64,000 nucleotides of DNA from positions 8,575 through 72,574 of the forward strand of contig CAVWGE010000001.1 in NCBI GenBank assembly GCA_963754385.1, read 5' to 3'. This document shows, in pieces, positions 7,503 to 39,413 of this stretch. Source of the stretch: an uncultured Chloroflexia bacterium (GTDB taxonomy: Bacteria > Chloroflexota > Dehalococcoidia > GIF9 > UBA5629). How positions within the stretch are numbered: the first letter of the stretch is position 1; each line of letters opens with the position of its first letter. Made by a program: the position numbers and the translations under genes. The notes under the pieces are model-generated. The model made no database searches. It saw nothing but the letters and a program-made list of their open reading frames with translations, and was not told the DNA's origin.

Positions 7503-9185
7503 TCAAATGTTTCCTTCGGCTTTTAGTATTGCCGAGATCTTTTCTCTTAGGCTTTTCTTTTCAAACTTGCCAACCTTAGTCACGGGTAACTCATTTATAA
7601 ACTCCAATCGCTCAGGTAGTTTGAACTTCGCAACCCTTCGCTCCTCCAGAAGGAAGCGGTTTAGCTCATCAAGTGTAAAGGTTTCGCCAAGCTGTGGTAC
7701 TATAAATGCACAGATACGTTCTCCCATCTCCTTATCTGGCATGCCTACCACAGCCACCATCTTAACTTTAGGGAACTTCTGTATGTGGCTCTCTACTTCT
7801 TCAGCATTGATCTTTTCCACTCCACGGCTAATGCAATCCTTAAGGCGTCCCGCTACGATGTAATTACCACTCTCGTCTTTCCGAACTAGATCACCGGTAC
7901 GATAGTATCCTTCCGCAGTAAAGACCTCCTTATTGCGCTCCGGGGCTTTGTAATAACCACGGATAGTATAAGGGCCTCTGCACAATAATTCCCCAACCTC
8001 CCCAACCGGTACCTCTTTTTCGGTGTTGGGGTCTACAATTTTGACATCATCAGCTTCAGATATAGGTCGACCCTGCGTTTGTATCTTTATTTCTAATGGA
8101 TCGGATAGTCTGGTCCAATTCATCAACCCCTCCGCCATACCGTAGGTCTGATTGGTATCGCAGTGAAAGATCTCCCTGAATTTCATTTGTATTTCGGGGT
8201 CGACAGCGTTCCCTCCCCACAGAAGTTGCTTAAAGGAACCTAGGTCATACTTCAGGCGTGCTTCCTGCGGCACACCCAGTAATCGGTGCATTACAATTGG
8301 GACTGTAACCATAGTATCGGCCGCATTATCCGCAATTGCCTGAAGTAGGGCTTCAGGTGCGAACGAAGGAGTTATTACTGCAGCACCACCTCTAGAGTGT
8401 ACGGCCAGCAGACCACCAACCAGAGGTAAGTTATGCATTAGTGGCATAGCTATGAGGAGTCGGGTATTTTCGTTAAGGTCTGTGGCAATAGCGGAACATT
8501 TGGAATTATAGTAGTAGTCATTATGAGTACGAGGGATGATTTTTGGTACATCGGTCGTTCCCCCAGATAATTGGAAAAATGCAGGTTGCATAGGGTCTGG
8601 ACGATAACGCACTAACCCTGTCCTGGCAGCATTCAGGTCTATATCGCTTGCTAAAATATCATTAATGGACATCATATTGGGGAACTCAGGCTTTCCCATT
8701 GTCAAGATGAATTCCAAACTTGGTGTGGCCTTTCTAACTTCATCAGCAAATGCCTCGTAATCGAAGTCTTTGACTTGGCCAGCGGGAATGATATGAATCC
8801 GTGCTCCGGTCTCCTTTGCAAGGAAGCTTATCTCCGCCCACCGATGTGTAGGTAGAGAACAAATTGGAATAGCGCCGATCTTCATGCAGGCATAGACCAT
8901 GTATACCAGCTCAGGCGTATTAAAAAGTTGCATAATTACACGATCATAAGTTTTGACACCCGAACGAGCCATGTAATAAGCTAACCGTGTGGCATACTCA
9001 TCCATTTGGCGGTAGGTGCTCTCTTTCCCTTGATAGACCAAAGCAGGACGATCTCCATACAATTCAACCCATCGACCAAGGATTTCCCCGAAAGTAAAAT
9101 CTTCCCAGTAGCCCTCACTTTTATACCTCTTCACATATTCATCTGGCCATAGCACAAATCCCTCTAATAATCTGTCTTTCACCAT
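7503..9185 (-). CDS. Aryl-acid adenylating enzyme / aryl-CoA ligase (EntE/DhbE-like AMP-dependent synthetase)
   Basis: 560 aa. Has the AMP-binding core (LSGGTTDVPKIIPRTH; YRTGDLVR; GRLKD.I.RGVEKI). The N-terminus resembles 2,3-dihydroxybenzoate-AMP ligases. Confidence 0.75.
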   Translation of the reverse strand: MVKDRLLEGFVLWPDEYVKRYKSEGYWEDFTFGEILGRWVELYGDRPALVYQGKESTYRQMDEYATRLAYYMARSGVKTYDRVIMQLFNTPELVYMVYACMKIGAIPICSLPTHRWAEISFLAKETGARIHIIPAGQVKDFDYEAFADEVRKATPSLEFILTMGKPEFPNMMSINDILASDIDLNAARTGLVRYRPDPMQPAFFQLSGGTTDVPKIIPRTHNDYYYNSKCSAIATDLNENTRLLIAMPLMHNLPLVGGLLAVHSRGGAAVITPSFAPEALLQAIADNAADTMVTVPIVMHRLLGVPQEARLKYDLGSFKQLLWGGNAVDPEIQMKFREIFHCDTNQTYGMAEGLMNWTRLSDPLEIKIQTQGRPISEADDVKIVDPNTEKEVPVGEVGELLCRGPYTIRGYYKAPERNKEVFTAEGYYRTGDLVRKDESGNYIVAGRLKDCISRGVEKINAEEVESHIQKFPKVKMVAVVGMPDKEMGERICAFIVPQLGETFTLDELNRFLLEERRVAKFKLPERLEFINELPVTKVGKFEKKSLREKISAILKAEGNI

Positions 9186-9266
9186 CTTTCACTCCCTTGC
9201 ACTAAGTAAGGCATTTGATTATGCCCGACGAGTTTACCAATTTTTTGATTTGGTATATTCACAAAT

Positions 9267-10565
9267 TTAAATGACATTTGCCGCTTTAAGAATGGCTAGC
9301 TTCTCTTTGGTGAACCCCAACTCATTCTTATAAATTTCAAGATTGTGCTCCCCAATGAGAGGTGCTCGCTTGAATAGCTCCCATGGTGTCTGCGAAAAGC
9401 GGTAGGGTGGGCCAGGATATTTAAGGCTATCCTTAAGCTCGGGATGTTCAACATCTACGAAATAGTTACGTGCTTTTAAGCCTATATCTTCCACCACATC
9501 TTTGGCATCATTAACGGGCATAAGCCTAACTCTTCGCGTCTGTGCTCCGACGAACAGTTCTTCTTTGGTGTGTGTCATCAGAAACGCTTCCCATATCTCT
9601 TCAATGTGGCGCACCTCCGCAACATAGCTCTGGAGGCTCCTTTTCGTTTTATTCAGGTCTACATCTTTCGTTGATTTGGTCTTCCCATATGGAAACCCAC
9701 CCATCATGAGGGTTATAACGTGGTCGTATTTGCCGCTTTTCAAATCGCCTGCCATCCCCTCGCTATCCATCCACTCAATCATAGTCTCTGCCCCAGCGCC
9801 ACCCAGAGCACTGCACACGATTCGCCCATCCTTACAACGGAAGATGTCCCTCAGTCCCCGGTAGACCTCAAACCCGGTCCTTTTACGGTTAGACTTTACC
9901 AGCCAGTAGGTAAACGGGGCCATTTCGGAAAGCCTCAAACAGGTGCCTTGTATGGGTACATCAACCCACTGACCTTTACCAGTCTTGTCCCGATGCTGCA
10001 GGGCTATAAGGGCTCCTATAGCCGCACTCGCCGAGGCCATGTGATAGGCTTGAGAAGCTCCCAAAGTGGTAGGCGGGTCATCGGGGAAACCCATGGTATA
10101 TAACAACCCACATGTAGCTAGGCCGATTAAGTCCGATGACTCATATTCGCGGTAAGGCCCCGTCTGCCCGAAACCGGTTATTGATACCAGAATCAAAAGG
10201 GGATTAATCTTCTTTAGTGCAGGATAACCTAAACCCATTCTTGCCAGATAGCCCGGTTTAAAAGTCTCCACCATTATGTCTGCAGTTGTGACCAGTTCTT
10301 TTAATATTTCCCGTCCATCTTTAGCCTCAATGTTTAGTGTGATGCTCCTCTTGTTGGTATTGTACTGAAAGAAATAGAGGGATTTCTCCGGATGAGGAAC
10401 ATCTTTATAAAATGGACCGATGTTCCGGGTCGGGTCACCTCCTGGTGGCTCGATCTTAATCACATCTGTCCCCAGGTCAGCCAGCACTTTCGTGCAGTAG
10501 ACACCACTAGGACCAGCTAAATCAAGTACTCTTAAATCCCCTAACGCTCTATTCGACTTATTCAT
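9267..10565 (-). CDS. Family III CoA-transferase (CaiB/BaiF family), subunit 1
   Basis: 432 aa. N-terminal 'LRVLDLAGPSGVYCTKVLADLGTDVIKIEPPGGD' is the family-III signature. Confidence 0.75.
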   Translation of the reverse strand: MNKSNRALGDLRVLDLAGPSGVYCTKVLADLGTDVIKIEPPGGDPTRNIGPFYKDVPHPEKSLYFFQYNTNKRSITLNIEAKDGREILKELVTTADIMVETFKPGYLARMGLGYPALKKINPLLILVSITGFGQTGPYREYESSDLIGLATCGLLYTMGFPDDPPTTLGASQAYHMASASAAIGALIALQHRDKTGKGQWVDVPIQGTCLRLSEMAPFTYWLVKSNRKRTGFEVYRGLRDIFRCKDGRIVCSALGGAGAETMIEWMDSEGMAGDLKSGKYDHVITLMMGGFPYGKTKSTKDVDLNKTKRSLQSYVAEVRHIEEIWEAFLMTHTKEELFVGAQTRRVRLMPVNDAKDVVEDIGLKARNYFVDVEHPELKDSLKYPGPPYRFSQTPWELFKRAPLIGEHNLEIYKNELGFTKEKLAILKAANVI

Positions 10566-10605
10566 CGCACACTCTACTATTGCGACTCAAAAACTGTCAA
10601 GAATC

Positions 10606-11838
10606 TCAGTCAAAAGCTCCGGCCACGTAACATTCGTTTATCTCATCCTCGGACATACTGAGAATTTCTTTAAAAACATATTCGTTATCTTGCCCTATTG
10701 AGGAAGGGCCGGGCTTACGGACGGCTCCGGGAGTTTTGGAAAGCCCTATGGTGATATTTTCACAAAATGCCTTCCCCTCTGGATGGTCAAGCTCCTTATA
10801 GTATTGCCGTGCTTTAACCTGTTCATCATGATATAGTATGTCTTCACCAGTTTCAACCACGCCAGTAGCTACACCCCTAGCTTGCAATGACTTCATTATT
10901 TCTTCAGGCGTTTTACTAATTGTCCATTCTTGGATAAGGCTATCCAGTTCATCCTCATTCTCTTTGCGTCGCACTAAAGTTGCAAATCTTGCTTCTGTAG
11001 TCCAGGATGGATTACCTATGACCTGAGCAAATGATGCCCACTGCTCCTCATTAAAAACGGCAATAGCACACCAACGGTCATCCCCTTTGCAGCGATAAAC
11101 CCCGTGAGGGGCAGCATATGGTAGGCGATTGCCCTGTGGCTTACGTATACGCTTATTGACGGTGTAGTCCAAAATCGTGGTTTCCATGCAGCATAAGCAA
11201 CTTTCAAACTGCGATAGCTCTATATACTGCCCTTTGCCAGTCATGTTCCTATAATGGAGAGCAGCCAGGACTGCAATAGTAGCGTGGGTTGGATTAGGTC
11301 CCATATCAGGCAAAGCAATATTTATTCCGGGTGGGCGATTTGGAAACCCAGATATGCTATTCAGCCCTACGGCGGATTGGATACCAGTCCCATAACCAGA
11401 GAATTTACTACGGGGTCCGGTTTTCCCGAATACAGGCATGGTAATTGCGATGATGTCAGGTTTTACTTTTACCAGTTCTTCGTAGCCTAACCCAATCTCG
11501 TCCATGTAGCCAGCGGAAAAGTTGTCACAGACTATATCACTTACTGAGACTAACTTCTTAGCAATCTCAATTCCTTTGGGATTTCTCAAGTTAAGGCTAA
11601 TACTGAGCTTACCGCAGTTAAAGTTGGTGAACAGAGCACCTCGACGTACCTTGCCTTCAAAGGTCTTCGGGTCGCCCGGGGCGTTTCTGGCCCAGTCTAT
11701 TCTCTTTGTGCTCTCTATTTTAACTACTTCTGCCCCATAGTCAGCAAAGTATCGACCCACCCAGGGGCCCGCCTGCACCCAGCTGAAATCAGCAAATCTT
11801 ATTCCCTCAAGGGGCATTCTCTTTTGCTTGGGAACCAT
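10606..11838 (-). CDS. Family III CoA-transferase, subunit 2
   Basis: 410 aa. 'GIRFADFSWVQAGPWVGRYFADYGAEVVKIES'. A paired arrangement as in two-subunit BbsEF- or PhtSab-type transferases. Confidence 0.75.
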   Translation of the reverse strand: MVPKQKRMPLEGIRFADFSWVQAGPWVGRYFADYGAEVVKIESTKRIDWARNAPGDPKTFEGKVRRGALFTNFNCGKLSISLNLRNPKGIEIAKKLVSVSDIVCDNFSAGYMDEIGLGYEELVKVKPDIIAITMPVFGKTGPRSKFSGYGTGIQSAVGLNSISGFPNRPPGINIALPDMGPNPTHATIAVLAALHYRNMTGKGQYIELSQFESCLCCMETTILDYTVNKRIRKPQGNRLPYAAPHGVYRCKGDDRWCAIAVFNEEQWASFAQVIGNPSWTTEARFATLVRRKENEDELDSLIQEWTISKTPEEIMKSLQARGVATGVVETGEDILYHDEQVKARQYYKELDHPEGKAFCENITIGLSKTPGAVRKPGPSSIGQDNEYVFKEILSMSEDEINECYVAGAFD

Positions 11839-11922
11839 CTTAGGGATACCTCAGTATTTGACCCTTACCAGTTCTTCTAATCAAAACGCCGACGCGTTCT
11901 AAAAGACCTGATAAAATATTAA

Positions 11923-12831
11923 TCATATAGGATTTGCCTTACGCCTTTCATAGCCGTATTTCTCAAAGGGTTTATCTCTAAAATCGAGGGCAGCTTTCAT
12001 ACCTTGTTCTTTCATAATGGTGTAGAATTCCTTCTCGCACTCGTTCGCAACTAGATGGACCAGAGTATTTACTTCTTCATTGTGCCAAATTTGTTCCCGT
12101 GCTCCCTTCAAGTTCATGCCAAACTTCAGGGACATTTTAACTATTTTTAAAATCTCCAAAGGCATCAGGGACATTATTTCTGCATACCGGATAGCTTCTG
12201 CCTCAACCCGATCATCCGGGACAACCTTGTTTATGGCCCCCAGCCGGTATAGTTCCTGAGCACTGATATTCCACCCACAGCAAAGAGTTTCGAAGGCTTT
12301 CCGGTAGCCAGTCCACATTTGGAGCATACCCCCGAAACCACCCGAAACGCGAGTAATTTCGAAGCCCATAAATGAGCTTTCACCCATGACGACAATATCA
12401 TGGAACATGACAAACATAGCACCTGCAGCAAGGGCCGCACCACGCACACCAGCTACGATAGGTTTGGATATTTCCCAAACGGGGTAGGCAAAAATGCGAG
12501 GGTCATTGACTCGTCTCCACTTTGGTTCTCCCCATTCCGCTTTTTCACCTGGTTTCCATTCCTGCTTTCTTGATAAGACGGCGACGTCATGGCCAGCAGA
12601 AAAATGTTCACCAGTAGCTAAACTCACGGCGACCTTGGCTTCATTATTTCTCTCGAACTTGTCAATAGCATCCAGAAATTCAGTCTGAAATTCTTTCCCC
12701 ATGGTGTTCCTTTTGTCAGGTTCGTTGTGAATGATTTTGGTTACCACACCCGGTTCATATATCAAAGTCTTATACTTATCGGCCATATCATTAACTCCAC
12801 TCATAAAAATTACGGAATAGCCCCCAGGCAA
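11923..12831 (-). CDS. Enoyl-CoA hydratase/isomerase (crotonase) family protein
   Basis: 302 aa. Crotonase-fold motifs (..NEPDKRNTMG.. FSAGHDV). Confidence 0.65.
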   Translation of the reverse strand: MPGGYSVIFMSGVNDMADKYKTLIYEPGVVTKIIHNEPDKRNTMGKEFQTEFLDAIDKFERNNEAKVAVSLATGEHFSAGHDVAVLSRKQEWKPGEKAEWGEPKWRRVNDPRIFAYPVWEISKPIVAGVRGAALAAGAMFVMFHDIVVMGESSFMGFEITRVSGGFGGMLQMWTGYRKAFETLCCGWNISAQELYRLGAINKVVPDDRVEAEAIRYAEIMSLMPLEILKIVKMSLKFGMNLKGAREQIWHNEEVNTLVHLVANECEKEFYTIMKEQGMKAALDFRDKPFEKYGYERRKANPI

Positions 12832-12873
12832 TTGGGTTATTCACTCATTCACCTGCAATATCCCGGCACTTAA

Positions 12874-14193
12874 TCATTCCCTTCCTTTATTAAAGAAGCT
12901 GGCCCATGGGTCGATGCTCTGGTATCTCTCACCCGGTTTCCAACGTTTCAGAGTTTCTGGCAGCCTGCCCTTCATCGGTTTTGGCCAGTACTGTGGCGTA
13001 TACTGCTCTTTACCGTAATTAGGATTCACCGTGCACCTCATAGAGACAGTGCCACCCCAGATACCCATGGCTACACAATAGTTGTCTCTTTTACACATTG
13101 CAATTTCGTTCACTTTGCCTTCTGCTACCTTATTGGGCCAATCCGGGTCAGCGATTGCCTGTCTGCCTAAAGCTACCATATCGGTTTCACCATCCTTAAT
13201 AACTTTCTCAGCCACTGCGGGTGTCTGAAAACCGGCTGAAATAACTGGGATTTTGATTACAGCCTTTAATTTCTTGCCTTGGGCTTCCAGCAGTTCATAA
13301 TTATCGGGAGTATCAGGGAAGAAGTGCTTAAAATCATCGTAGCCAGAGCCATTGGAAAGGCTGATAGCATCTGCCCCAGCCTCTTCAAACAACTTGGCCG
13401 CATTGCGTACATCTTCGGGTTTAATCCCGTCCGGTTGGTACTCCCGGCCGCTCATGCGTACCACAATCGGTACACTGTTTTTGAATTCCTTTCTCAACAT
13501 GGTTAACAATTCTGTAATATATCGGGCGCGGTTTTCCACTGACCCACCATACTGATCGGTACGTTTATTAATGCGAGGAGACAAGAATTGATGTAGGCCA
13601 TAACCATGAGGCCCATGGATTTCAATCCCATCAAAACCAGCTAGTATGGCTAATTCGGCAGCCCTGACAAAACTTTTCTGGTCGGCATGAATTTCATCTA
13701 CAGTCATTGCCCTGGGAATAGCGAGTAGGTGATTGGTCCAGTCATTACGCCAGTATTTCGCCCAGGCACGAGTTGACTTAGCTTTTAGCAGACCCTCATA
13801 CAGTTCCTCTCTTTTAAATGGCGTGGCTGAAGAACTTTTGGCATTGGTTCTGCCGGTCTGTCGGCCAAAACCGGGACTCAGTTGGGCGAAGATTTTGGTA
13901 TTGGTACCCATGGAGTGTATCGATTCTGTAAAATCACTCCAGTATCCCATGTTAAAACTCCCAGGATACAGATAAGGCACAAAAGGATACTCATCTCTTG
14001 CCCCTTTATTAGTAATTATCGAGCCCGTGGTAAGAAGCCCGAAGCCCCCAAGAGCTCTGGCATTGAAATAACAAATATACTGCAGGGTTACGTGACTATC
14101 CCGATCACCTTGCTGGTTCATTGGAGCCATAGCAATCCGGTTTTTGATTGTCACTGGTCCGATTTTAATTTGTTCAAAAAGCTTATCGTACAC
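12874..14193 (-). CDS. Old-yellow-enzyme family NADH:flavin oxidoreductase (enoate / enoyl-CoA reductase-like)
   Basis: 439 aa TIM barrel. N-terminus 'IGPVTIKNRIAMAPM' and an internal HGAHGYL-like motif ('IEIHGPHGYGLHQFLSP'). Confidence 0.65.
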   Translation of the reverse strand: MYDKLFEQIKIGPVTIKNRIAMAPMNQQGDRDSHVTLQYICYFNARALGGFGLLTTGSIITNKGARDEYPFVPYLYPGSFNMGYWSDFTESIHSMGTNTKIFAQLSPGFGRQTGRTNAKSSSATPFKREELYEGLLKAKSTRAWAKYWRNDWTNHLLAIPRAMTVDEIHADQKSFVRAAELAILAGFDGIEIHGPHGYGLHQFLSPRINKRTDQYGGSVENRARYITELLTMLRKEFKNSVPIVVRMSGREYQPDGIKPEDVRNAAKLFEEAGADAISLSNGSGYDDFKHFFPDTPDNYELLEAQGKKLKAVIKIPVISAGFQTPAVAEKVIKDGETDMVALGRQAIADPDWPNKVAEGKVNEIAMCKRDNYCVAMGIWGGTVSMRCTVNPNYGKEQYTPQYWPKPMKGRLPETLKRWKPGERYQSIDPWASFFNKGRE

Positions 14194-14244
14194 TTTAAAT
14201 TTCCTCCTTCTGTTTCGCTCGATTTTTGCTGCTCATTTTGCAAT

Positions 14245-15249
14245 TCAGATTTTAGGTGGTGAAACCTTTAGTATCTTAGCCAGATTGAGTCCAGCCCAAT
14301 TTGCTCTATCATCTTCGCTCAGAGGTGGGTATCCATAGTCTTTTTGCACTTGCTCTGAAATATTAAACTTTTGCAGGAGATCGACTTCATCTTTGCTTGG
14401 TCCTAAATCTGTACCCCAGACTATTTTGTTAATTCCAGCAAACCTGATTGCTTCGCCCAACAATATCTGGGCTTTCCGACTATTACCATAACCAAAATAC
14501 GGTAGCAGGCTAGTCCCTATATACAAGTTGGGATATTTCAATGCACAAATGTTCAGTTCGTCCGTATATGGATAACCCATATGATATGCCAGTATGGTAA
14601 GTTCAGGAAATTCTTCACACACATCTTCGAGAACAGAAGGCCGACAATATTCTGAGCGCCCTGGCACACACCATGAAGCCCCTGTATGTATGAAGAGGGG
14701 CACACCCAGTTCTTGCAGCTTCTCATAAAAAGGCCACAATTCCTTATTATTAATTGGTGTGTCATCAGCAGGATAGAACTTGACCGCCTTAAAATTCATA
14801 TTTTTTACCAGGTAATCAATTTCCCATATGGCGTTCTTTATTCCCCTGTATATCAATGGACCGACATTACAAACACCCACAAGCCTACCAGGATACTTCT
14901 CCAGCTCTTTAGCCAGCCAACCATTGGTTGACTCCATGCGGGCATAATTTGACATCGGCAGGAATGATTCAGGTAACACACACGCCATGGTTATACCAGC
15001 TTCATCCATTTTCTCAATTAGAGCGCTTGCAGATTCACCGGGTAATTTACCGACTCGCCTCTTTCTGCTTGCTCGAGTTTCCTCGGGAGACCTAACCTCC
15101 TTTATCCCGTACACCGTGTAGGGCTCAAGCTGATAAACGAGATTTCTTACAGCCTTTTGGTTCATCATGTAATAGGGATAGTAACTGATATCACTGGGTT
15201 GAGGTAGCATATGGCATTCACAATCAAAAATGAACATTTTGTGTTCCAA
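14245..15249 (-). CDS. Amidohydrolase-2 family metal-dependent hydrolase/decarboxylase
   Basis: 334 aa. Amidohydro_2-type TIM-barrel motifs (FIHTG; ..KFYPADD..), the family of non-oxidative hydroxybenzoate decarboxylases. Confidence 0.55.
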   Translation of the reverse strand: MEHKMFIFDCECHMLPQPSDISYYPYYMMNQKAVRNLVYQLEPYTVYGIKEVRSPEETRASRKRRVGKLPGESASALIEKMDEAGITMACVLPESFLPMSNYARMESTNGWLAKELEKYPGRLVGVCNVGPLIYRGIKNAIWEIDYLVKNMNFKAVKFYPADDTPINNKELWPFYEKLQELGVPLFIHTGASWCVPGRSEYCRPSVLEDVCEEFPELTILAYHMGYPYTDELNICALKYPNLYIGTSLLPYFGYGNSRKAQILLGEAIRFAGINKIVWGTDLGPSKDEVDLLQKFNISEQVQKDYGYPPLSEDDRANWAGLNLAKILKVSPPKI

Positions 15250-15707
15250 TCCGCGGATTTATATTTGGTCGTGTCCGACCTATTTAATTAAATTATAACA
15301 TTTTTAAAAATGTTGTCAATAGGTAACGCTAATTTTCTGACTTTCCTCAGCCTTTTGCCATCATTAATACTCAAAAACAACCTACAACTCCGTTACCGCC
15401 TACTATGCTTTGGGTAGGTTTGGGTAAATGACATTATGAGAAAGCTATAATATATTTTCCTATAAATACTGAAGTATGGAGGGATTTGTTTGAATAGACT
15501 GGACTAACATGATGAGTGGACTTTTCTGTTCAAATCGATGGGTTTAATACTTGTAAGAGATAGCGCTTAGTGCCTATCTTCAAGCGCATAAATCCGATGT
15601 AGTTACTTCCAAATTAACCTGGGGAAGCAATTACCGAGCCAGAATCCTGACCCTTACATACAATCATAATTGATACCGTCTCGTGCAAACGAGATTAAGA
15701 TAAGACG

Positions 15708-16235: not shown

Positions 16236-16329
16236 AATGAATTCCCTTCTCTTTTAGCATACAAAAAGGTCTTACCCGAAATAATTTAGCAAATTCCAAG
16301 AGATTTTTCAAGGGTATGTAATAAGCTAT

Positions 16330-16362
16330 TGACAAAGTAATAGCTAACATTTTATAATATAA
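16330..16362 (+). promoter_or_regulatory. Sigma70-like promoter (TTGACA-18-TATAAT) upstream of the ABC importer operon
   Basis: 'ttgacaaagtaatagctaacattttataat' read directly. It lies in the divergent marR / ABC intergenic region. Confidence 0.45.
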
Positions 16363-16605
16363 CGAATCGGATACGATTTATATTAATGTCTAGTTAATTT
16401 AAATAAAAATGTGAGGATGATAAGGTGAGCGAACTGTTTCCAACCAAAACAATAGCTATAGAGGTGCTAGGTTGTACTGACGCAACTCGGGATGAGATCT
16501 TATCAAAATTTGTGGTAGAACTAAAATACTCCAAAAGAAAAGGGGGGGGCAAAATGAAATAGTCAGACTAGCTTTAATAAATAGTAAACATACTAAGGAG
16601 GTAAA

Positions 16606-17931
16606 ATGAAAAAGCTGTTTCTAATACTATTAGCAATTGCAACGGTGATTGGTTTGACTTCCGGTGCTTGTAAGTCAGAACCGGCAGTCAAAAAGGAGAT
16701 TCTTGTGGGCTACACTGCGTCGTTAACAGGCGCCTTTGCTGGTTTCGGCGTAGGCCACACATTTGGAGCGCAAGCGGCGATCGATGACATTAATGCACAA
16801 GGAGGAGTATATGTAAAGGAGTACGGACGTAAATTGCCCATCAAATTGATCGTCCGCGATACCGAGAGTGACCCATTAAAGGTAGCGACTCTTGCCGAAC
16901 AGCTGGCTACCCTCGACAATATAGATTTTTTTATAACAGGTAATGAACCACCGGCAATGCACGTCGGCGTAGCCAATGCAGCTGCGCGATATAAAATCCC
17001 ACATATCGGTCGCGTCGCTGTAATGGAACCATGGCTTGAAATGCGGGCAGGTGCTACGCCACCTTGGGAATACACTTGGGCTACTGGTTTTTCAATAGCT
17101 GCCGGGGCCCAGGAAGGGGATTTCCGGTATCAGGTGCCAGGATATACCATACTGTCTATCTGGTTACCGGCGATACAGGGAGTAGCCGATAAAACTAACA
17201 AAACAGTGGGTATATTCGGCTCAGATGATCCTGACGGCAGAGGTTGGTACATGCTGTCCCCCACAGTGTTAGAGGCGAGTGGTTTTACTGTTAGCGGGAT
17301 AGATAAAAAAATAGGGCTGTACACTATTGGAACTACGGATTTCTCATCAATAGTTAATAAGTGGAAAGAAGATCATGTAGAAATACTTTGGGGTAATTGC
17401 ATTGGACCTGACTTGGGAATAATATTGAGACAGGCTCAAGCGCTGGGGTTTCAGCCTAAGATGGTTCTCTGTGGCCGAGCACCCTGCAATTATGTAGATG
17501 TAACTGCTTGGGGTGGTGACCTACCATTAGGCATCTGTGTGGAAAGCAATTGGAGCCCTGAATATCATAGTCCTGGTATTGGTGATACCACACCACAATC
17601 CTTGGCAGCAAGGTGGTCCGATGAGACGGGGCAACCAATTAACTTCAATGTAGGGCTGGGATACTATCCAATCCAGGTCTTGGTTGACGCTATCGAGAGG
17701 GCAGGAACACTTGATGCCAATGCAATCAATAATGCCATAGCGAAAACTGACCTCATGACACTGAACTGGCGTGTGAAGTTTGACAAAAATCAATTCAGTA
17801 TAGACCCGCTAAACCTTGGACAATGGCAAAAGATTGATGCACCAGAGCAATGGGAAATGAAGATAGTCGCTTCCCCGCATGAATTCATAAGGCCCAACGC
17901 TGATCTAATATTTCCTATTCCGTACAAGTAA
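16606..17931 (+). CDS. ABC transporter substrate-binding lipoprotein (LivK / Peripla_BP_6 type)
   Basis: 441 aa. Signal peptide plus lipobox (LTSGAC). Branched-chain/aromatic-acid binding-protein fold features. Confidence 0.7.
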   Translation: MKKLFLILLAIATVIGLTSGACKSEPAVKKEILVGYTASLTGAFAGFGVGHTFGAQAAIDDINAQGGVYVKEYGRKLPIKLIVRDTESDPLKVATLAEQLATLDNIDFFITGNEPPAMHVGVANAAARYKIPHIGRVAVMEPWLEMRAGATPPWEYTWATGFSIAAGAQEGDFRYQVPGYTILSIWLPAIQGVADKTNKTVGIFGSDDPDGRGWYMLSPTVLEASGFTVSGIDKKIGLYTIGTTDFSSIVNKWKEDHVEILWGNCIGPDLGIILRQAQALGFQPKMVLCGRAPCNYVDVTAWGGDLPLGICVESNWSPEYHSPGIGDTTPQSLAARWSDETGQPINFNVGLGYYPIQVLVDAIERAGTLDANAINNAIAKTDLMTLNWRVKFDKNQFSIDPLNLGQWQKIDAPEQWEMKIVASPHEFIRPNADLIFPIPYK

Positions 17932-18045
17932 TAAGGTGGATTAAGTAGCTGTCAGGGGAGCTTAAGACGATACATCTTAAGCTCCCCTGACGCTAGATAG
18001 GCTGAAGGATTTTCTACACGAGTTTAATATTGACTGGAAAAAGTT

Positions 18046-18762
18046 ATGGACCAGACGGTTCTTTCCATCGTTGGAATAACTAAGAGTTTTGGCGGGCTAC
18101 TTGTTCTCAGAGATTTAAGTTTTGATATACAGAACGGCGAAGCCGTGGGTGTTATGGGCCCAAATGGTGCAGGTAAGACAACACTATTAAACATCATAGC
18201 TGGTGAATACAAACCTAACTCTGGAGCAATAAAATTTAATGGAAATGACATCACAGCTCTATCCCCCCAACAAATTTGCCACCTTGGAATTGCCCGAACT
18301 TATCAAATTCCTCAACCCTTTATGAACTTAACCGCTAAACAAAACCTAATGGTGGCAGCTATATATGGGAAAGGCCTAAAAAAAGATGCTGCTGAGAAAG
18401 AAGCTAACGAAATACTTGATATCGTAGGTCTTTCGGAAAAGAAGGATGTGCTGACTAAAGATTTGAGAACGATAACTCTCAAGCTGCTTGAGTTGGCCCG
18501 GGTCCTAGCCACTGGCCCGACGGTGCTGCTGCTCGATGAGGTCGCGGCGGGCTTAACTGAAGCGGAGATACCTCAACTATTAGACATTCTGAAAAGGGTG
18601 CGAACCATGGGCATAACCATTTTGTTAATCGAACATGTTTTACGCGTAATGGCGCAGGTAGTCGATAGGATTGTAGCGCTGGATCAAGGCATTAAAATCG
18701 CTGAGGGCACACTAAAGGAGCTAATGGAAAACAAAAAGGTTATTGAAGCCTATCTTGGTTAG
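18046..18762 (+). CDS. ABC transporter ATP-binding protein (LivG-like)
   Basis: Walker A (GPNGAGKTT), signature (LATGPTVLLLDEVAAGL) and Walker B. Confidence 0.8.
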   Translation: MDQTVLSIVGITKSFGGLLVLRDLSFDIQNGEAVGVMGPNGAGKTTLLNIIAGEYKPNSGAIKFNGNDITALSPQQICHLGIARTYQIPQPFMNLTAKQNLMVAAIYGKGLKKDAAEKEANEILDIVGLSEKKDVLTKDLRTITLKLLELARVLATGPTVLLLDEVAAGLTEAEIPQLLDILKRVRTMGITILLIEHVLRVMAQVVDRIVALDQGIKIAEGTLKELMENKKVIEAYLG

Positions 18763-18796
18763 CAATATTCAAACGCTTGTTTTCAAAGTATATGTA

Positions 18797-19534
18797 ATGG
18801 ATAAACATAGCTATCAGATATCTCAAGATATATTGCTAAAAGTTATCAATATAGACGTGTTTTACGGTAATCTTCAAATCTTGTGGGATATATCATTAGA
18901 AATTAAAACTGGTGAAATCGTAGCTCTTATTGGCTCCAATGCTTCAGGTAAGTCTACCCTGATAAATACAATATCAGGTTTTCTACATCCCGCCCGGGGT
19001 ACTATTGAATTTGAGGGCCAGGATATCTCAACTATGAATCCCTTTCAAACAGTTGACCTCGGTATCTCCCAGGTTCCGGAAGGAAGAATGATCTTTCCCG
19101 AGATGACTGTATTAGATAATCTTATATTAGGTTCATACTGTAGTAGGGCGAGATCCAATAAGAAACAAAACCTCAAAATGGTTTACGAACATTTCCCTTT
19201 ACTAGAAAAGAGGAAAGACCAACTGGCGAGCACACTAAGCGGTGGCGAGCAACAGATGCTAGCGATTGGGCGGGGCTTAATGTCAAACCCAAAGCTTATA
19301 CTTCTTGATGAAATATCACTCGGCCTTGCCCCCTTAGTTATTAATGAACTATATAGGGTTTTGCGGGAAATTATAAGTAGTGGTGTTACTATTCTCTTTG
19401 TCGAACAGAACGTAAAGCGAAGCCTCAAAGAAGCTGATAGAGCATATATTATGAAAACAGGGCGTATTGTTTTACGCAAGAGCGCGGCGGAATTCCAAGA
19501 GGAGGAGATTAAAAAGGCTTACTTCGGGACATAA
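18797..19534 (+). CDS. ABC transporter ATP-binding protein (LivF-like)
   Basis: Walker A (GSNASGKST), LSGGEQQ signature and LLDEIS Walker B. The start is chosen at the internal ATG MDKHSY. Confidence 0.8.
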   Translation: MDKHSYQISQDILLKVINIDVFYGNLQILWDISLEIKTGEIVALIGSNASGKSTLINTISGFLHPARGTIEFEGQDISTMNPFQTVDLGISQVPEGRMIFPEMTVLDNLILGSYCSRARSNKKQNLKMVYEHFPLLEKRKDQLASTLSGGEQQMLAIGRGLMSNPKLILLDEISLGLAPLVINELYRVLREIISSGVTILFVEQNVKRSLKEADRAYIMKTGRIVLRKSAAEFQEEEIKKAYFGT

Positions 19535-19539
19535 AATGA

Positions 19540-20433
19540 TTGGATTGGCACATGTCAGATATGGTCTTGGAAATTATAGTTAAAGCATCTAGTCCTATAA
19601 TTATGGGAGTTCTACTAGGCGGATTATACGCATTAATTGCCTTGGGTCTTTCGCTAGTTTTCGGAGTCATGAAACTGATAAATGTAGCTCACGGAGACTT
19701 AATGATACTCGGCAGCTACTTTGCCTACGCGGTAATGACTGCTTGGGGGATAGACCCAATTCTAAGCTTATTTCTGGGTATACCCCTATGGTTTATGATC
19801 GGTTTTACCATACAAAAATATCTGATGAGCCGAGCCTCTAAGATATCAATGGAAGCCCCGCTCATTATTGCCTTTGGGATTTCTATGATAATTCAAAATC
19901 TTGCCCAGATTATCTGGTCTCCGATGTCAAGGGGTTTAACAACGTTTTATACAGTTGGAGGTCTCAATATTGGTATCGTTTCTATACCGAAAGTATATCT
20001 GCTCGATTTTATTGCCGCTTTAGTAGTGATGCTTCTCCTCCGTGAATTCCTCAGGAGAACCTATTTGGGCAAGGCTATCTCGGCTACCTCTCAGAATAAG
20101 CAGGCAGCTCAACTGATGGGGATAAATACTGGGCGCGTGTATGCCTTCGCCTTCGGCATTGCCATGACAACTGCGGCAGTAGCCGGTGTGTTCCTAGGGT
20201 TGACCTTTCCCTTTACCCCCACATCGGGAATTTCCTTTCTCATCATTGCCTTTGGCGTGGTAATAATAGGAGGTTTAGGCAGTATGCTGGGAACATTTAT
20301 CGGGGGCATGTTCTTAGGATTAGCCCAGTCCCTTGGTGGTTATTTCCTTGGTGCTTCCACTCAGATGTTTTTCCCTTATCTCATAGTACTTGTAGTTCTA
20401 GCGGTAAAGCCTCAAGGAATATTTAGACGTTAA
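19540..20433 (+). CDS. ABC transporter permease (LivH-like)
   Basis: 297-aa polytopic membrane protein immediately after the ATPases. Confidence 0.7.
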   Translation: MDWHMSDMVLEIIVKASSPIIMGVLLGGLYALIALGLSLVFGVMKLINVAHGDLMILGSYFAYAVMTAWGIDPILSLFLGIPLWFMIGFTIQKYLMSRASKISMEAPLIIAFGISMIIQNLAQIIWSPMSRGLTTFYTVGGLNIGIVSIPKVYLLDFIAALVVMLLLREFLRRTYLGKAISATSQNKQAAQLMGINTGRVYAFAFGIAMTTAAVAGVFLGLTFPFTPTSGISFLIIAFGVVIIGGLGSMLGTFIGGMFLGLAQSLGGYFLGASTQMFFPYLIVLVVLAVKPQGIFRR

Positions 20434-20439
20434 CGAACC

Positions 20440-21414
20440 ATGAATAAAATTATTCATCAATTAAGAAAAGGCCTGATACTGCTAGTAGTGCTCGTAGTAG
20501 CGCTGGCGATAATTCCGCTAACAGGGGTCCCTAAGTATTGGATCCTTTACCTTTTTTTGTTTTTCATATACCTAGCTATGGCCAATATATGGAATTTGCT
20601 TGCTGGTTATTCTGGTCTGTTATCTCTATGCCAGCCTGCGTTTATTGGCCTGGCAGGATACACCCTCGCAATAGTCACATGGTTCGGTTTACCTTTTTAT
20701 CTCGGAATAATAGGTGGAGCTATAGTAGCTGCAGTATTTGCCATGCTCATATCTATTCCTCTCTTTAGACTGAGAGGCATATATTTTGCTATCGGCACAC
20801 TAGTTGTACCCGAATTACTGAAGATTGTATTTTTTCTCTGGAGGCCCATCGGCGGGGCACTGCTTGGCGGAGGCGTGGGCTACATGATAAAAGGTAGATC
20901 TGAGCTTTCCATGACAGAGACTTACTGGCTTGCTCTTGCTATCGGGATTATATCAATTTTCCTTGTACGAATAATTTTACAGTCGGAGTTGGGACTGGGT
21001 CTTACTGCGATCAGCGATAACGATAGAACTGCTGCTAGTTCCGGGGTAGGTGTTTTTAAATTGAAGCTCTTCGTCTTCGTTATTGGCAGCCTCGTAACAG
21101 GAATAGCTGGAGCTATCTTCTACATTTACCAAGGATTTATAGAGCCAGTCAGTGCATTCAATATAAGGTGGACAATGACATTAATGCTCGCTACCGTCAT
21201 AGGCGGCATTGGCAGTGAAGTAGGACCGATTTTAGGAACAATCATCATTGTCTTTTTGCACTTCCTTCTAGCTAAGTACGCTGGAATCAGCTTACTCATA
21301 CAGGGCGCAATACTGATTGGCATAATGTTATTGGTACCTCAAGGTATTATCGGCTTCATACGAAAGACTCTAGTTTATCATCCCCTGCAGAAATTAATTG
21401 GGAGGTATAAATGA
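20440..21414 (+). CDS. ABC transporter permease (LivM-like)
   Basis: 324-aa polytopic membrane protein. Completes the five-gene Liv-type importer. Confidence 0.7.
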   Translation: MNKIIHQLRKGLILLVVLVVALAIIPLTGVPKYWILYLFLFFIYLAMANIWNLLAGYSGLLSLCQPAFIGLAGYTLAIVTWFGLPFYLGIIGGAIVAAVFAMLISIPLFRLRGIYFAIGTLVVPELLKIVFFLWRPIGGALLGGGVGYMIKGRSELSMTETYWLALAIGIISIFLVRIILQSELGLGLTAISDNDRTAASSGVGVFKLKLFVFVIGSLVTGIAGAIFYIYQGFIEPVSAFNIRWTMTLMLATVIGGIGSEVGPILGTIIIVFLHFLLAKYAGISLLIQGAILIGIMLLVPQGIIGFIRKTLVYHPLQKLIGRYK

Positions 21415-21506
21415 AATTAGAAAATTAATAATGTAGTATTATTGACAAAAATTGGATGATAGTATAATTTTAATCTCGGATACCATTATTATGATGGAGG
21501 TGAATT

Positions 21507-24221
21507 ATGAGACTTGCTAAGCTTTACATTAATGGAGTTAAAAAAGAGATCTTGTGTACTGAAGATGGGCGGCTACTGAATGTTATCCGTAATGACCTTG
21601 GGCTTATGGGAACAAAAAGGGGATGCAATCAAGGTTATTGCGGTGCTTGCTCTATTATCATGGATGGAAAGGTTGTGCGCTCATGTTCAATTTCTATGAG
21701 AAAGGTACCTGATGATACTAAAATCATCACTATTGAGGGCATAGGAACTTTGGACAATCCACACCCTATTCAAAAGGCCTTCGCTTACGCGGGTGCTATC
21801 CAATGCGGTTTCTGTACCCCTGGAATGATTGCCGTGGCAAAGGCGCTTCTTGACGAAAATCCAAACCCGACTGAAGAAGAGATTCGGTATGCTTTTAAAC
21901 ACAATCTATGTCGCTGTACAGGTTATAACTCAATCATTAGGGCAGTTCAGCTTGCTGGCAAGCTAATCAAGGGCGAAGTAAAAGAAGACGATCTCAAGGT
22001 TGATACATCCAAAGGGACTTTTGGTAAGCGTGTTCCACGGCCGAATTCTCTTGCGAAAGCCACAGGTGCTATTCAATTCGGAAACGACATCAAATTGCCA
22101 CCAGATATCCTCCACTTAGAAGTTGTGCGTAGCCCATACCACCATGCGATTATCAAATCCATCAACACTTTTGAAGCTGAGCAAATGCCGGGCATAGTAG
22201 GCGTACTCACTGCTAAGGACATTCCTGGGACGAACAGACTCACGTTCCACGGCAGTATTCACTATAAGAATTACGTGCCCAATGAACGCGCTCTTTGTGA
22301 TAAGAAGGTTGGTGAATGGGGCAGCCCTATCGCTATCGTGGTGGCGGAGACTATTGAACAAGCAGTTGCAGCGTTGGACAAGGTCAAAATTGAATACGAG
22401 GTTCTTCCCCGTTATAAAACGCCAAAGGAGTCTTTAGCTCATGTAGCTATTCCAATCATCTCTGAATACGATAGTAACCTCACCTTTACGGGTTATTTGA
22501 AAAAAGGTGTAGTTGATAAGGAAGACGCAGAGAAATCGATGCATGATTCAGATATTGTAGTGAGTCAAAGTTTTGTTACCGCCCGCGAGCCTAATCTAGT
22601 AATCGAACCTGATAGTGTAATAGCTTTTATCGACGAAGATGACCATATTACAATTATGTCAAAAACGCAATCTATTCAAGATCATATAAATGAGCTCGCA
22701 CCGATTCTTGGCACTAAACCTGACAAGTTACGCTGGATAGAGAACGCATGTGGGGGAAGTTTCGGCGTCAAACACGCTGTTACTCATTCTGAAGTTTTTG
22801 CGGCACTTGCTGCCATGAAGTTTCATCGTCCATGCAAGATTGAATATTCCCTGTCAGAGGATATTTTAACTACTCCCAAACGAGCTAGAGTCTGGGTTAA
22901 TGCGAAAATAGGAGCTGCTAGAGACGGTAAAATAAAATGCTTAATTTACGACATCAATGTTGATTGTGGAAGCGTGGATAGCCTCGGCTCGATAACCGTC
23001 TATAAATGTCACGAATATATTGGTGGGCCCCATAATATACCCAAGGCTTATGGTGAAGCTAGACTCGTCCTGACCAATAACGCTCGATCTACTACTTGCG
23101 GCAGAGCATTGGGGGCAACGCAGACACAGTTAGTATCTGAAATCCTTTTAGACATGTTAGCTGAGAAGCTAGGGATGGATCCGCTAGAATTTAGATATCA
23201 GAATGCATGGAGAGAAGGGGACATTGGTAACTGGGGAGCCAAGCTTGATTGCTATCCATACCCAACAATGCTAGAGAAACTACGCCCCTTATATCAAGCA
23301 GCTAAAGAAAAAGCTCTGAGAGAATCAAACACTGAGAAGAAACGAGGTGTTGGAATCGGTGCAGGGCTTTTCGGGTGCGGATTTGATGACATCCCAGACA
23401 GTTCCACTGCTTGGGTTGAGCTAAATCCTGACAATGGGGTAACTGTCTATGCTACATGGGCTGATACGGGCCAGGGTGGTGACATAGGCATTCTAACAAT
23501 AGCATCTAAAGCTATGGGTGGTCTTCCACCCGAAAAAATCCGCGTGGTTTCAAGAGATAGTAGCCTAACACCAAACAGTGGTTCCTCATGTGCTAGCCGT
23601 CAGACATCTATTACAGGAAATGCCATCCGTTTAGCTTGTGAGTCACTGCTAAAAGCCATGAAAGACAATAATTGTAATAGCTACGATGATATGATTGCCA
23701 AGAGGGTTCCTCTCAAATACGAAGGGACACATGTTTGTAGAAAAGTTGTTACTAGTGATGAAAATAGCCAAGGAATGCCTGTTGAGAATTGGCAATACAA
23801 CTTGCAGATGGCAGAAGTAGAGGTCGAAATTGGTACAGGCAGAGTTAATGTGCTAAAGATGACGTCATTTGTCGATGCTGGCATCATCCATAATCCGATA
23901 GCTGTTGAAGGCCAATGTGAAGGTGGATCAAATATGGGGGTAGGTTTCGCCCTCTGGGAAAATTTTGAATCTGGTGAAACAGATACTTTGATCAAAGGGG
24001 GGATACCTAACTTCATTAATTCACCGCCAATAGAATGCCATTTTCAGGAGACTTTTAGACCAAATGGCACTTTTGGTGGAACCGGCGTTGGGGAGGGTGT
24101 CATGATAGGAGCTGCACCCGCCGTCATAAATGCAATTTACGATGCTTGTGGCGTTAGGATATGTGAATTCCCTATAAACAAAGAGGTAATTCTAGCAAGC
24201 ATTAAGAAAAGCAAAATATAA
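21507..24221 (+). CDS. Molybdenum aldehyde oxidoreductase, single-chain xanthine-oxidase family (MOP-like: two [2Fe-2S] plus a molybdopterin domain, no FAD domain)
   Basis: 904 aa. N-terminal plant-type and helical 2Fe-2S motifs (CNQGYCGACS; CGFCTPG; CRCTGY) followed by the Mo-cofactor domains. The size and architecture match the Desulfovibrio MOP-type aldehyde oxidoreductase. Confidence 0.8.
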   Translation: MRLAKLYINGVKKEILCTEDGRLLNVIRNDLGLMGTKRGCNQGYCGACSIIMDGKVVRSCSISMRKVPDDTKIITIEGIGTLDNPHPIQKAFAYAGAIQCGFCTPGMIAVAKALLDENPNPTEEEIRYAFKHNLCRCTGYNSIIRAVQLAGKLIKGEVKEDDLKVDTSKGTFGKRVPRPNSLAKATGAIQFGNDIKLPPDILHLEVVRSPYHHAIIKSINTFEAEQMPGIVGVLTAKDIPGTNRLTFHGSIHYKNYVPNERALCDKKVGEWGSPIAIVVAETIEQAVAALDKVKIEYEVLPRYKTPKESLAHVAIPIISEYDSNLTFTGYLKKGVVDKEDAEKSMHDSDIVVSQSFVTAREPNLVIEPDSVIAFIDEDDHITIMSKTQSIQDHINELAPILGTKPDKLRWIENACGGSFGVKHAVTHSEVFAALAAMKFHRPCKIEYSLSEDILTTPKRARVWVNAKIGAARDGKIKCLIYDINVDCGSVDSLGSITVYKCHEYIGGPHNIPKAYGEARLVLTNNARSTTCGRALGATQTQLVSEILLDMLAEKLGMDPLEFRYQNAWREGDIGNWGAKLDCYPYPTMLEKLRPLYQAAKEKALRESNTEKKRGVGIGAGLFGCGFDDIPDSSTAWVELNPDNGVTVYATWADTGQGGDIGILTIASKAMGGLPPEKIRVVSRDSSLTPNSGSSCASRQTSITGNAIRLACESLLKAMKDNNCNSYDDMIAKRVPLKYEGTHVCRKVVTSDENSQGMPVENWQYNLQMAEVEVEIGTGRVNVLKMTSFVDAGIIHNPIAVEGQCEGGSNMGVGFALWENFESGETDTLIKGGIPNFINSPPIECHFQETFRPNGTFGGTGVGEGVMIGAAPAVINAIYDACGVRICEFPINKEVILASIKKSKI

Positions 24222-37479: not shown

Positions 37480-37481
37480 CT

Positions 37482-39404: not shown

Positions 39405-39413
39405 AATTTTCCC

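Follow-up and report, generated by a model that had tools for sequence, protein, structure and literature searches.

The stretch of DNA analysed here (the window) comprises 64,000 nucleotides of contig CAVWGE010000001.1, which stems from an uncultured Chloroflexia bacterium. It starts with a 23S rRNA gene and a tRNA-Met gene, and the latter is the target of a 22.4-kb integrative island that extends from about 2405 to 24791 and holds all genes of a preliminary description of the locus. The genes listed there were all recovered at their positions by open reading frame (ORF) listing and by Pfam and NCBIfam scans. Six genes of the island, on the minus strand (15237-7503), are closely packed in one block, with only 40-90 bp between neighbours. 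They encode, in this order, an Amidohydro_2 protein, an Old Yellow Enzyme (OYE), a crotonase-fold protein, subunits B and A of a family-III coenzyme A (CoA)-transferase, and a ligase. That the module genes are contiguous and make up one CoA-dependent catabolic block had been proposed before and is supported. The operon most likely accounts for the upper part of a catabolic route that is anaerobic, reductive and CoA-dependent.

The six genes are conserved as a unit. About 25 related loci were compared; their contexts were obtained by searching public proteins, species-representative genomes and metagenomes with the Amidohydro_2 protein, and all proteins of the window were run against them by tblastn. 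The gene order was kept in at least 12 distinct contigs from several phyla, and each protein was 57-74% identical in amino acid sequence to its counterpart in the window. The contigs were assigned to Desulfomonilaceae, Dehalococcoidia/Dehalococcoidales, other Chloroflexota, Deferrisomatales, and metagenome-assembled genomes (MAGs) labelled “Deltaproteobacteria”. Recurrence of six genes in the same order in so many contigs and phyla places the arrangement far beyond chance. Rearranged or truncated versions of the core were seen in L008, L012, L014 and L050, and the Amidohydro_2 and OYE genes are still neighbours where identity has dropped to about 45%. All matches in the species-representative genome collection (16 of 16) were MAGs, and the operon is so far known from uncultured anaerobes only.

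The other genes of the region do not travel with the core. According to the tblastn comparison, this holds for the MarR regulator, the ATP-binding cassette (ABC) importer, the MOP-like aldehyde oxidoreductase, the RutB-like hydrolase, and PanE. Elsewhere, tripartite ATP-independent periplasmic (TRAP) transporters of the DctPQM type were found in L002, L005, L008 and L015 and major facilitator superfamily (MFS) transporters in L006, L007, L021, L035, L039 and L046, and a distant Liv-type ABC system lay beside the core only once, in L039. Regulators at the other loci were mostly MerR-TetR fusions (7 loci), and a Crp type was also seen. The module is a six-gene operon with lineage-specific import and regulation. 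The preliminary description had called the module “complete” with MarR, ABC importer and MOP included, which does not hold, since these three are replaced or absent elsewhere.

At two of the related loci, the operon adjoins genes for primase-helicase (AEP-TOTE/DEAD) and RepB-like proteins or a DDE transposase (L024, 1-8010; L010, 3477-4550). The operon may be mobile in these lineages as well.

The ligase gene (core gene 6, 7503-9185, minus strand) encodes an aryl-acid adenylating enzyme or CoA ligase that belongs to the DhbE clade and has a changed pocket. The closest solved relatives were DhbE (E = 5e-128, 41% identity, same fold) and salicylate-AMP ligase (8e-127). The DhbE residues H234, N235 and K519 are kept, and the first two, which contact the ortho substituent of the substrate in DhbE, are invariant in the clade. 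The pocket differs from that of DhbE by the replacements Y236->L, S240->G, A308->N, V329->T and V337->M. At the positions of the code for 2,3-dihydroxybenzoate (DHB) and salicylate (N235, Y/F236, S/C240, A308, V329, V337) the window ligase has N, L, G, N, T and M. Across the orthologue clade, within which the changed pocket is kept, T329 and N308 are conserved. Scores also fell below the cut-offs of the DHB-AMP ligase families (TIGR02275, 470 vs 723.55 bits; NF008192, 439.8 vs 783 bits). A model for cyclohexanecarboxylate-CoA ligase matched as well (233 bits), and medium-chain ligases matched at lower scores.

The nearest solved relatives of the ligase are siderophore enzymes, an isochorismatase-family gene lies 700 bp from it, and the ABC transporter parts resemble LivFGHM. 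One might suspect from this that the genes are unrelated neighbours or biosynthetic, with a ligase of siderophore synthesis (EntE/DhbE) and a transporter that is a true Liv system for amino acids, the two identities that would have spoken against the preliminary description. We consider this highly improbable. It is largely refuted by the six-gene synteny across phyla. No aryl carrier protein (ArCP), non-ribosomal peptide synthetase, EntA or EntC was found in the island; in contrast to DhbE and EntE, the ligase has no carrier-protein partner and is set in a CoA-metabolising operon. The isochorismatase-family protein (6086-6799, minus strand, 237 aa; PF00857) is a RutB-like cysteine hydrolase (TIGR03614, 273.8 bits vs a cut-off of 378) without carrier domain. 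It belongs to the island cargo, is not linked to the six-gene core in related loci, and is separated from the ligase gene by a truncated C5 cytosine DNA methyltransferase fragment (6825-7478, minus strand). The latter covers only profile positions 23-167 of 324 of PF00145, i.e., the N-terminal half, and is likewise island cargo that is unlinked to the operon elsewhere. As for the transporter, every ABC part scored below the Liv/Urt equivalog cut-offs, and the substrate-binding protein (SBP) reached only 63 bits vs 477 for the LivJ type.

The two CoA-transferase genes (PF02515, both minus strand) encode different subunits. Subunit A (core gene 5, 9267-10565) had its best PDB match in 9fn0_A (1.5e-61; 9fn0_B 1.1e-36), and subunit B (core gene 4, 10606-11838), the cluster of which is named BbsF by JGI, in 9fn0_B (2.3e-76; 9fn0_A 1.1e-15). 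The pair is thus reciprocally matched to the two different chains of benzylsuccinate CoA-transferase, which bears out the BbsEF/PhtSab-like architecture claimed for it earlier. Alignment with E. coli CaiB showed that an Asp at the position of CaiB D169 and Frc D169 is invariant in subunit B only, within the motif ALPDMGPNPTH. Subunit A has an Ala in the same column and lacks the catalytic Asp.

The benzylsuccinate beta-oxidation and anaerobic phthalate routes, the transferases of which (BbsEF, PhtSaSb) are heteromeric and depend on succinyl-CoA, share with the window the two adjacent, different family-III subunits. The restriction of the Asp nucleophile to one subunit can also be counted as a likeness to BbsEF, as can the crotonase-fold gene beside the transferases, where bbsH is found in the Bbs system. 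The window operon differs in that it has no homologues of BbsG, BbsCD or BbsAB and no UbiD/UbiX decarboxylase, in that its crotonase lacks the hydratase glutamates, and in that it additionally encodes a DhbE-like ligase, an Fe-S OYE and an Amidohydro_2 protein.

The OYE gene (core gene 2, 12874-14193, minus strand; PF00724 at 1.3e-57) encodes a truncated protein, made up of an FMN barrel and an Fe-S motif. The PDB matches were to DCR, NCR (6qkg, 2.4e-32) and TMADH, and extended up to the Fe-S region of these proteins. The motif HxxHGY, i.e., the classical His/His/Tyr triad of ene-reductases, is conserved. A C-x2-D-x2-C-x13-C motif (residues ~366-388) is present in the window protein and most orthologues, and in E. 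coli FadH the [4Fe-4S] cysteines stand at the aligned positions. The full C-x2-C-x2-C-x13-C motif occurs in L023 and L024; elsewhere the second Cys is mostly replaced by Asp, which would suggest either a [3Fe-4S] cluster or a [4Fe-4S] cluster with Asp as a ligand. FAD and NAD(P)H domains are absent from the window protein, the last residue of which is 439, and the alignment with FadH stops at FadH residue 367 of 672. BaiCD was the second-best NCBIfam match. As judged from these alignments, the protein corresponds to the FMN + Fe-S N-terminal module of the DCR/NCR/BaiCD class. An assignment as a plain NAD(P)H-dependent ene-reductase of the YqjM class was considered and dropped, because the orthologue alignment shows a conserved Fe-S-type motif. 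The OYE barrel of the “OYE-type ene-reductase” described earlier was therefore retained, but the plain ene-reductase was not.

An FMN- and Fe-S-motif-containing OYE, together with aryl-CoA formation, crotonase-fold enzymes and an Amidohydro_2 protein, is also found in the naphthalene and phenanthrene pathways (NCR/DHNCR/Apr, Thn). In the phenanthrene degrader TRIP_1, CoA-transferase genes lie near the reductase genes (PMC6849830). The OYE of the window (439 aa) ends after the Fe-S motif, in contrast to the 714-residue NCR, which continues into FAD and NAD(P)H domains, and the second cluster Cys of the NCR type is an Asp in most of its orthologues. The ligases of the polycyclic pathways are phenylacetate-CoA-ligase-like (PMC6849830) and not of the DhbE clade, and no reductase similar to class I benzoyl-CoA reductase accompanies the window operon.

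The classical ene-reductase triad would also be compatible with a non-aromatic acid as the substrate, with the OYE acting as an ordinary enoyl-CoA or enone reductase. Such an acid could be of the alicyclic or substituted-succinate type, for example a cyclohexene- or cyclohexanone-carboxylate, a naphthenic or terpenoid acid, or an alkyl- or arylidene-succinate. PhtSab and SmtAB are heteromeric family-III transferases that act on substituted succinates or 1,2-dicarboxylates. Together with BbsEF, they make such substrates conceivable for the transferase pair, and the match to cyclohexanecarboxylate-CoA ligase, with medium-chain ligases lower, fits as well. The ligase is, however, nearer by about 200 bits to aryl-acid adenylating enzymes than to any model of a fatty or alicyclic ligase, and several loci have phenolic-type neighbours (O-demethylase and phloroglucinol-pathway families, see below). 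Overall, we regard a non-aromatic substrate as quite unlikely.

The crotonase-fold protein (core gene 3, PF00378) is atypical. Its gene extends from 11923 to 12786 on the minus strand (ORF to 12831), the probable start being the Met at 12786; the Logan gene call has 287 aa. The protein was aligned with E. coli PaaF, PaaG, ScpB, CaiD and MenB. The pair of glutamates of canonical hydratases (E144/E164 in the rat enzyme; GAGCE and LPE in PaaF) is not conserved. The first catalytic Glu is absent in all orthologues, which have M, T, Q or H instead, and the second is found in only some of them and is missing in L002 and L005. An AGHD motif is present, as in the methylmalonyl-CoA decarboxylase ScpB. 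Of the crotonase of the preliminary description, the PF00378 fold can therefore be kept, but not the canonical hydratase residues.

This bears on a further alternative, a reductive CoA cycle of the Cai/Bai type, in which the ligase would prime, the transferase would recycle CoA, the crotonase would dehydrate and the OYE would reduce. Either an ortho or other hydroxyl group would be removed, with benzoyl-CoA passing to the BamB-I reductase of the host, or the substrate would serve as electron acceptor and the reduced acid would be excreted. The set of families (AMP ligase, family-III transferase, crotonase, reductase) is that of the annotated E. coli caiABCD record. Ligase, family-III transferase and Fe-S OYE are common to the bai operon, from which the second-best NCBIfam match of the OYE stems, and SnoaL-like proteins, which have the fold of BaiE, are found in L002 and L007. 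A full Bam cluster also lies near the island in the host. On the other hand, the crotonase lacks the (de)hydratase glutamates that E. coli CaiD retains, the window transferase is heteromeric, and there is neither a role for the Amidohydro_2 protein nor a counterpart of it in the cai (caiTABCDE) or bai systems. The Cai reductase is an acyl-CoA dehydrogenase rather than an Fe-S OYE module, and Bai differs in the FAD domain that the window OYE lacks. The operon is repeatedly joined to genes for cleavage of beta-keto acids or beta-diketones and for beta-oxidation, which argues for full breakdown and not for excretion. We hold a Cai/Bai-type cycle to be unlikely.

The Amidohydro_2 gene (core gene 1, 14245-15237, minus strand, ORF to 15249) encodes a metal-dependent TIM-barrel enzyme. 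The length of the database protein P0001, 330 aa, makes the ATG at 15237 the probable start. E7, H9, H184, H219 and D277 are invariant in 24 sequences. They occupy the expected metal or catalytic positions, with roles assigned by analogy, and the E-x-H, H, H, D pattern is shared with the characterised PF04909 enzymes (LigW, gamma-resorcylate and 2,3-DHB decarboxylases, ACMSD, LigI, LigJ, LigY). The structural model (pLDDT 88.6) was most similar to uncharacterised proteins (3irs, 3cjp), followed at about equal distance by decarboxylases, lactonases, LigY and LigJ, with at most 22% identity. No specific similarity to decarboxylases over other PF04909 functions was detected. The family assignment made earlier was thus upheld, but the protein is as distant from lactonases and C-C hydrolases as it is from the decarboxylases with which it had been identified. 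It belongs to a small, separate clade, with only 32 clusters at 50% identity and E<=1e-30 among 1.84 billion representatives. Other Amidohydro_2 proteins, BamU and ThnN, are induced in the anaerobic benzoate and naphthalene pathways, respectively, and are of unknown function (PMC1924859; PMC12016498), although ThnN is a candidate ring hydrolase (PMC12016498). In L039 (7505-8470) and likewise in L009 (4848-5882), the region a few kb upstream of the core encodes a further, distant Amidohydro_2 paralogue with 37-39% identity. In L039, this paralogue is accompanied by an ECH-like gene and a Liv-type ABC system.

Comparison with the named systems confirmed that the gene set matches no textbook route, as had been noted previously. 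A description of the operon, covering either the gene combination or salicyl-, gentisyl- or dihydroxybenzoyl-CoA in anaerobes, was not found by full-text searches of the literature. Each building block is of a known kind; what is new is their combination, together with the truncation of the Fe-S OYE and the distinctness of the Amidohydro_2 clade.

The island has clear borders. The tRNA-Met (CAT) gene was identified by ARAGORN and Rfam at 2330-2404 on the plus strand, and its 3' 45 nt (2360-2404) constitute attL. An exact repeat search found a 45-bp direct repeat of this 3' end, without mismatch, at 24747-24791 (attR, plus strand). A tyrosine integrase (2476-3654, minus strand; PF00589 and PF14659, with Xer-like NCBIfam matches below cut-off) and an excisionase-family DNA-binding protein (4757-4981, plus strand; TIGR01764, 47.6 bits vs a cut-off of 28.8) are both encoded at the tRNA end. 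The locus has all features of a tRNA-integrated genomic island (tRNA target, flanking direct repeats, integrase, excisionase), in agreement with the mobile element described earlier. The GC content gave no island signal, as the cargo has approximately 46%, like most of the window. The PanE-like gene (25024-26046) lies outside the island.

Two further repeats were observed at the island ends. An identical 22-bp sequence, TTTTGCTAATAATTTGCTAATA, is located inside each end (2460-2481 and 24607-24628), and these repeats may be putative arm-type binding sites of the integrase. A third, degenerate copy of the tRNA-Met 3' end (3 mismatches) is found at 24859-24890, 68 bp past attR, and was probably left behind when an element integrated at this site before.

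Upstream of the operon, the island carries a MarR/winged helix-turn-helix regulator (15708-16235, minus strand; PF13463, PF01047). It is specific for this island, with a single weak homologue (32%) at the related loci, in L015. The plus strand then encodes a five-gene ABC importer of the HAAT/Liv type (16606-21414, identified by Pfam), comprising a lipoprotein SBP (16606-17931), two ATPases (18046-18762 and 18743-19534) and two permeases (19540-20433 and 20440-21414). After a gap of 92 bp, the last permease gene is followed by that of a MOP-like single-chain Mo-pterin/2x[2Fe-2S] aldehyde oxidoreductase of 904 aa (21507-24221, plus strand), which is probably co-transcribed with the ABC genes. 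The six Pfam domains of MOP are present in the right order in one chain, and the score is below the equivalog cut-off (NF045668, 920.8 vs 1100 bits). No MOP was found beside the core at any other locus by tblastn, the sole match being the small 2Fe-2S subunit of a three-subunit xanthine dehydrogenase (XDH)-type enzyme in L006, at a distance of 9 kb. The aromatic aldehyde proposed earlier as a substrate would thus depend on a single island-specific gene and is not supported.

The only two perfect (12/12) sigma-70 matches in 19 kb lie before the Amidohydro_2 gene (TTGACA-16-TATAAT, 15319-15292, minus strand) and before the SBP gene (16329-16358, plus strand). Both start with CTATTGACAA, and each is followed by a related palindrome. 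The promoter-like site of the catabolic operon with its candidate operators spans 15267-15319; palindrome AACATTTTTAAAAATGTT lies between its hexamers, and palindrome GGTCGGACACGACC is at 15267-15280. The promoter-like site of the ABC-MOP operon spans 16326-16378, with palindrome AATCGGATACGATT at 16365-16378. This pattern suggests that MarR, presumably as a repressor, co-regulates the catabolic and ABC-MOP operons through the related palindromes as candidate operators. The shared motif occurs twice in the window and was derived post hoc from these very sites, so that it is a lead and not a test. A terminator scan gave fewer sites than in shuffled sequences and nothing usable.

In other lineages, the operon has recruited additional catabolic genes. 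BKACE proteins are encoded in or beside it in L007, L011 and L023, and cyclase-family hydrolases near it in L007 and L023. TAL (triacetate acetoacetate-lyase) and DPGC of the phloroglucinol pathway belong to these two families (PMC10470551). The Trp16 signature of TAL was not confirmed in the neighbouring BKACE proteins, which have S-N-F-H-G (L007, L023) or G-S-S-T-T (L011) at the expected N-terminal region, with no reference aligned. FAA-hydrolase genes are located near the operon in L006, L029 and L035, family-I CoA-transferase genes in L005 and L011, and hydantoinase A/B genes separate the gene of transferase A from that of the ligase in L010, L034 and L036. Thiolases and acyl-CoA dehydrogenases were recruited as well. 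O-demethylase-type trios (URO-D-like, corrinoid and pterin-binding proteins) adjoin the Amidohydro_2 gene or the core in L005, L009 and L011. Taken together, these neighbours would point to beta-dicarbonyl and phenolic chemistry.

Three lineages share a further neighbour of the Amidohydro_2 or transferase genes, an acetylene-hydratase-like W/Mo-bis-pyranopterin guanine dinucleotide enzyme with a small Fe-S subunit (L002, 6835-9530; L014, 303-5734; L015, 14538-16859). Its closest structure is 2e7z (9e-114). An assignment of the L002 enzyme as pyrogallol-phloroglucinol transhydroxylase was rejected, as acetylene hydratase was closest (9e-114) and transhydroxylase was absent among the matches.

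Some of the recruited genes could also be read in another way. DhbE-clade enzymes activate hydroxypicolinic, quinaldic and quinoxaline acids in addition to hydroxybenzoates. The substrate could therefore be an N-heteroaromatic 2-carboxylate of the picolinate, quinaldate, kynurenate or quinolinate type, with a ring nitrogen in place of the ortho hydroxyl group and hydrolytic C-N opening after reduction by the OYE. The enlarged ligase pocket (Y236->L, S240->G) would suit a bicyclic ring. Several of the accessory families include members that hydrolyse amides or lactams, namely hydantoinase/oxoprolinase A/B, the RutB-like amidohydrolase of the island, and the cyclase family, which includes relatives of kynurenine formamidase and isatin hydrolase (PMC10470551). 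Mo-hydroxylase genes are present as well, MOP in the window and XDH-type 2Fe-2S and FAD subunits in L006, but they are not conserved with the core. Moreover, the characterised PF04909 members are decarboxylases, hydratases, lactonases and C-C hydrolases, with no amidases among them, and the O-demethylase and FAA-hydrolase neighbours suit phenolics better. On balance, an N-heteroaromatic substrate appears decidedly doubtful.

The host itself encodes a full set resembling the class II benzoyl-CoA reductase BamB-I (36865-48482, minus strand), 12 kb from the island and preceded by a PaaX-like regulator. The set consists of BamB (AFOR, 45584-47587), BamC (45060-45587), BamD (CCG, 43883-45085), BamE (40733-43174), BamF (FlpD+HTH, 39925-40581), BamG (39414-39899), BamH (37482-39404) and BamI (36865-37479), all on the minus strand. 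A BamB homologue at 95% identity carries a Chloroflexota label. An HpaB-family protein (54473-55933) and, downstream of the Bam cluster, an acyl-CoA dehydrogenase (59615-60811) are encoded on the minus strand. The HpaB family also includes 4-hydroxybutyryl-CoA dehydratases, and the two genes are consistent with anaerobic acyl-CoA metabolism in the host.

We tentatively favour, at somewhat less than an even chance, the reading that the operon encodes a reductive, CoA-dependent pathway that opens the ring of an ortho-substituted aromatic acid. Since TRAP (DctPQM), MFS and Liv-type ABC transporters alternate between the loci, the substrate is expected to be a carboxylate. An aromatic, ortho-substituted acid is suggested because the ligase is nearest to DhbE and salicylate-AMP ligases and retains the invariant H234 and N235. 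A reductive step is suggested because the OYE combines HxxHGY with a DCR-type Fe-S motif and stops before the FAD/NADH domain. Beta-dicarbonyl products are suggested by the recruitment of BKACE, cyclase, FAA-hydrolase, hydantoinase, family-I CoA-transferase and thiolase genes, and a phenolic context by the O-demethylase trios, the TAL/DPGC families and the BamB-I reductase of the host. BamU and ThnN offer a precedent for Amidohydro_2 proteins in anaerobic aromatic pathways. Judged from the ligase clade, the carboxylate transporters and the neighbours, the substrate is probably a mono- or bicyclic ortho-substituted aromatic carboxylate, either salicylate- or resorcylate-like or with an ortho ring heteroatom. 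The hydroxyaromatic substrate of the preliminary description falls within this class and is plausible, but unproven.

In the favoured ring-opening route, the acid would be imported by the Liv-type ABC system of the island, and by TRAP or MFS carriers elsewhere. The DhbE-clade ligase would prime the pathway by forming the CoA thioester with ATP, and the heteromeric BbsEF-like transferase would then move CoA from a dicarboxylyl-CoA (succinyl-CoA or a pathway product) to fresh substrate. With electrons from an external donor, the FMN/Fe-S OYE module would reduce the activated ring or an enone. Finally, the crotonase and the Amidohydro_2 protein would act on a cyclic beta-oxoacyl-CoA by C-C hydrolysis, hydration or decarboxylation, and the resulting open-chain beta-dicarbonyl products would enter general beta-oxidation.

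Several points weigh against this route. The ligase pocket departs from the DHB and salicylate codes at 5 positions, so that the substrate may be no hydroxybenzoate. The crotonase lacks the hydratase residues that would indicate its reaction. Type III aryl-CoA reductases with demonstrated dearomatising activity have an FAD domain that the OYE lacks, and the genes nearby include none for an electron donor. The Amidohydro_2 protein is equally distant from decarboxylases, lactonases, hydratases and C-C hydrolases. Gene identities, synteny, island borders and active-site features were observed directly, but no enzyme reaches any curated equivalog cut-off, and we infer every catalytic and chemical role from family membership. 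The SBP of the window and the TRAP DctP of L002 have only weak PDB relatives, which are uninformative with respect to the substrate. Each accessory association is found in only 2-4 lineages and would fit N-heterocycle or alicyclic chemistry too, and the operator motif shared by the two promoter-like sites comes from these two sites, post hoc.

A bolder variant, which we consider rather improbable, is that the operon represents a new dearomatisation of monocyclic ortho-hydroxybenzoyl-CoA (salicyl-, gentisyl- or resorcylyl-CoA). Fed by ferredoxin or another donor, the OYE module would add two electrons. The product would tautomerise to a cyclic beta-oxoacyl-CoA, followed by hydrolytic opening by the crotonase and the Amidohydro_2 protein. 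Anaerobic routes for salicylate, gentisate and hydroquinone were described physiologically in the 1990s, and a gene-level description of them was not found in the literature. If this variant were true, both classes of benzoyl-CoA reductase would be bypassed, and the missing genes for these routes would be supplied.

That hydroxylated and other ortho-substituted aromatic acids are broken down anaerobically is known from physiology, but for several of these substrates no genes are known. The analysis defines a compact, horizontally transferred operon with four enzyme types that have not been reported together before, i.e., a DhbE-clade ligase, an asymmetric BbsEF-like transferase, a truncated Fe-S OYE, and a small, distinct Amidohydro_2 clade. 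Its occurrence in MAGs only, within the genome collection, would explain why the operon escaped biochemical study. It provides concrete candidates for in vitro work and a marker set for anoxic sediments, peat and aquifers. It also shows that a pathway of this type can be brought by a tRNA-targeted island into a Chloroflexota-like host in which a class II benzoyl-CoA reductase is already present.

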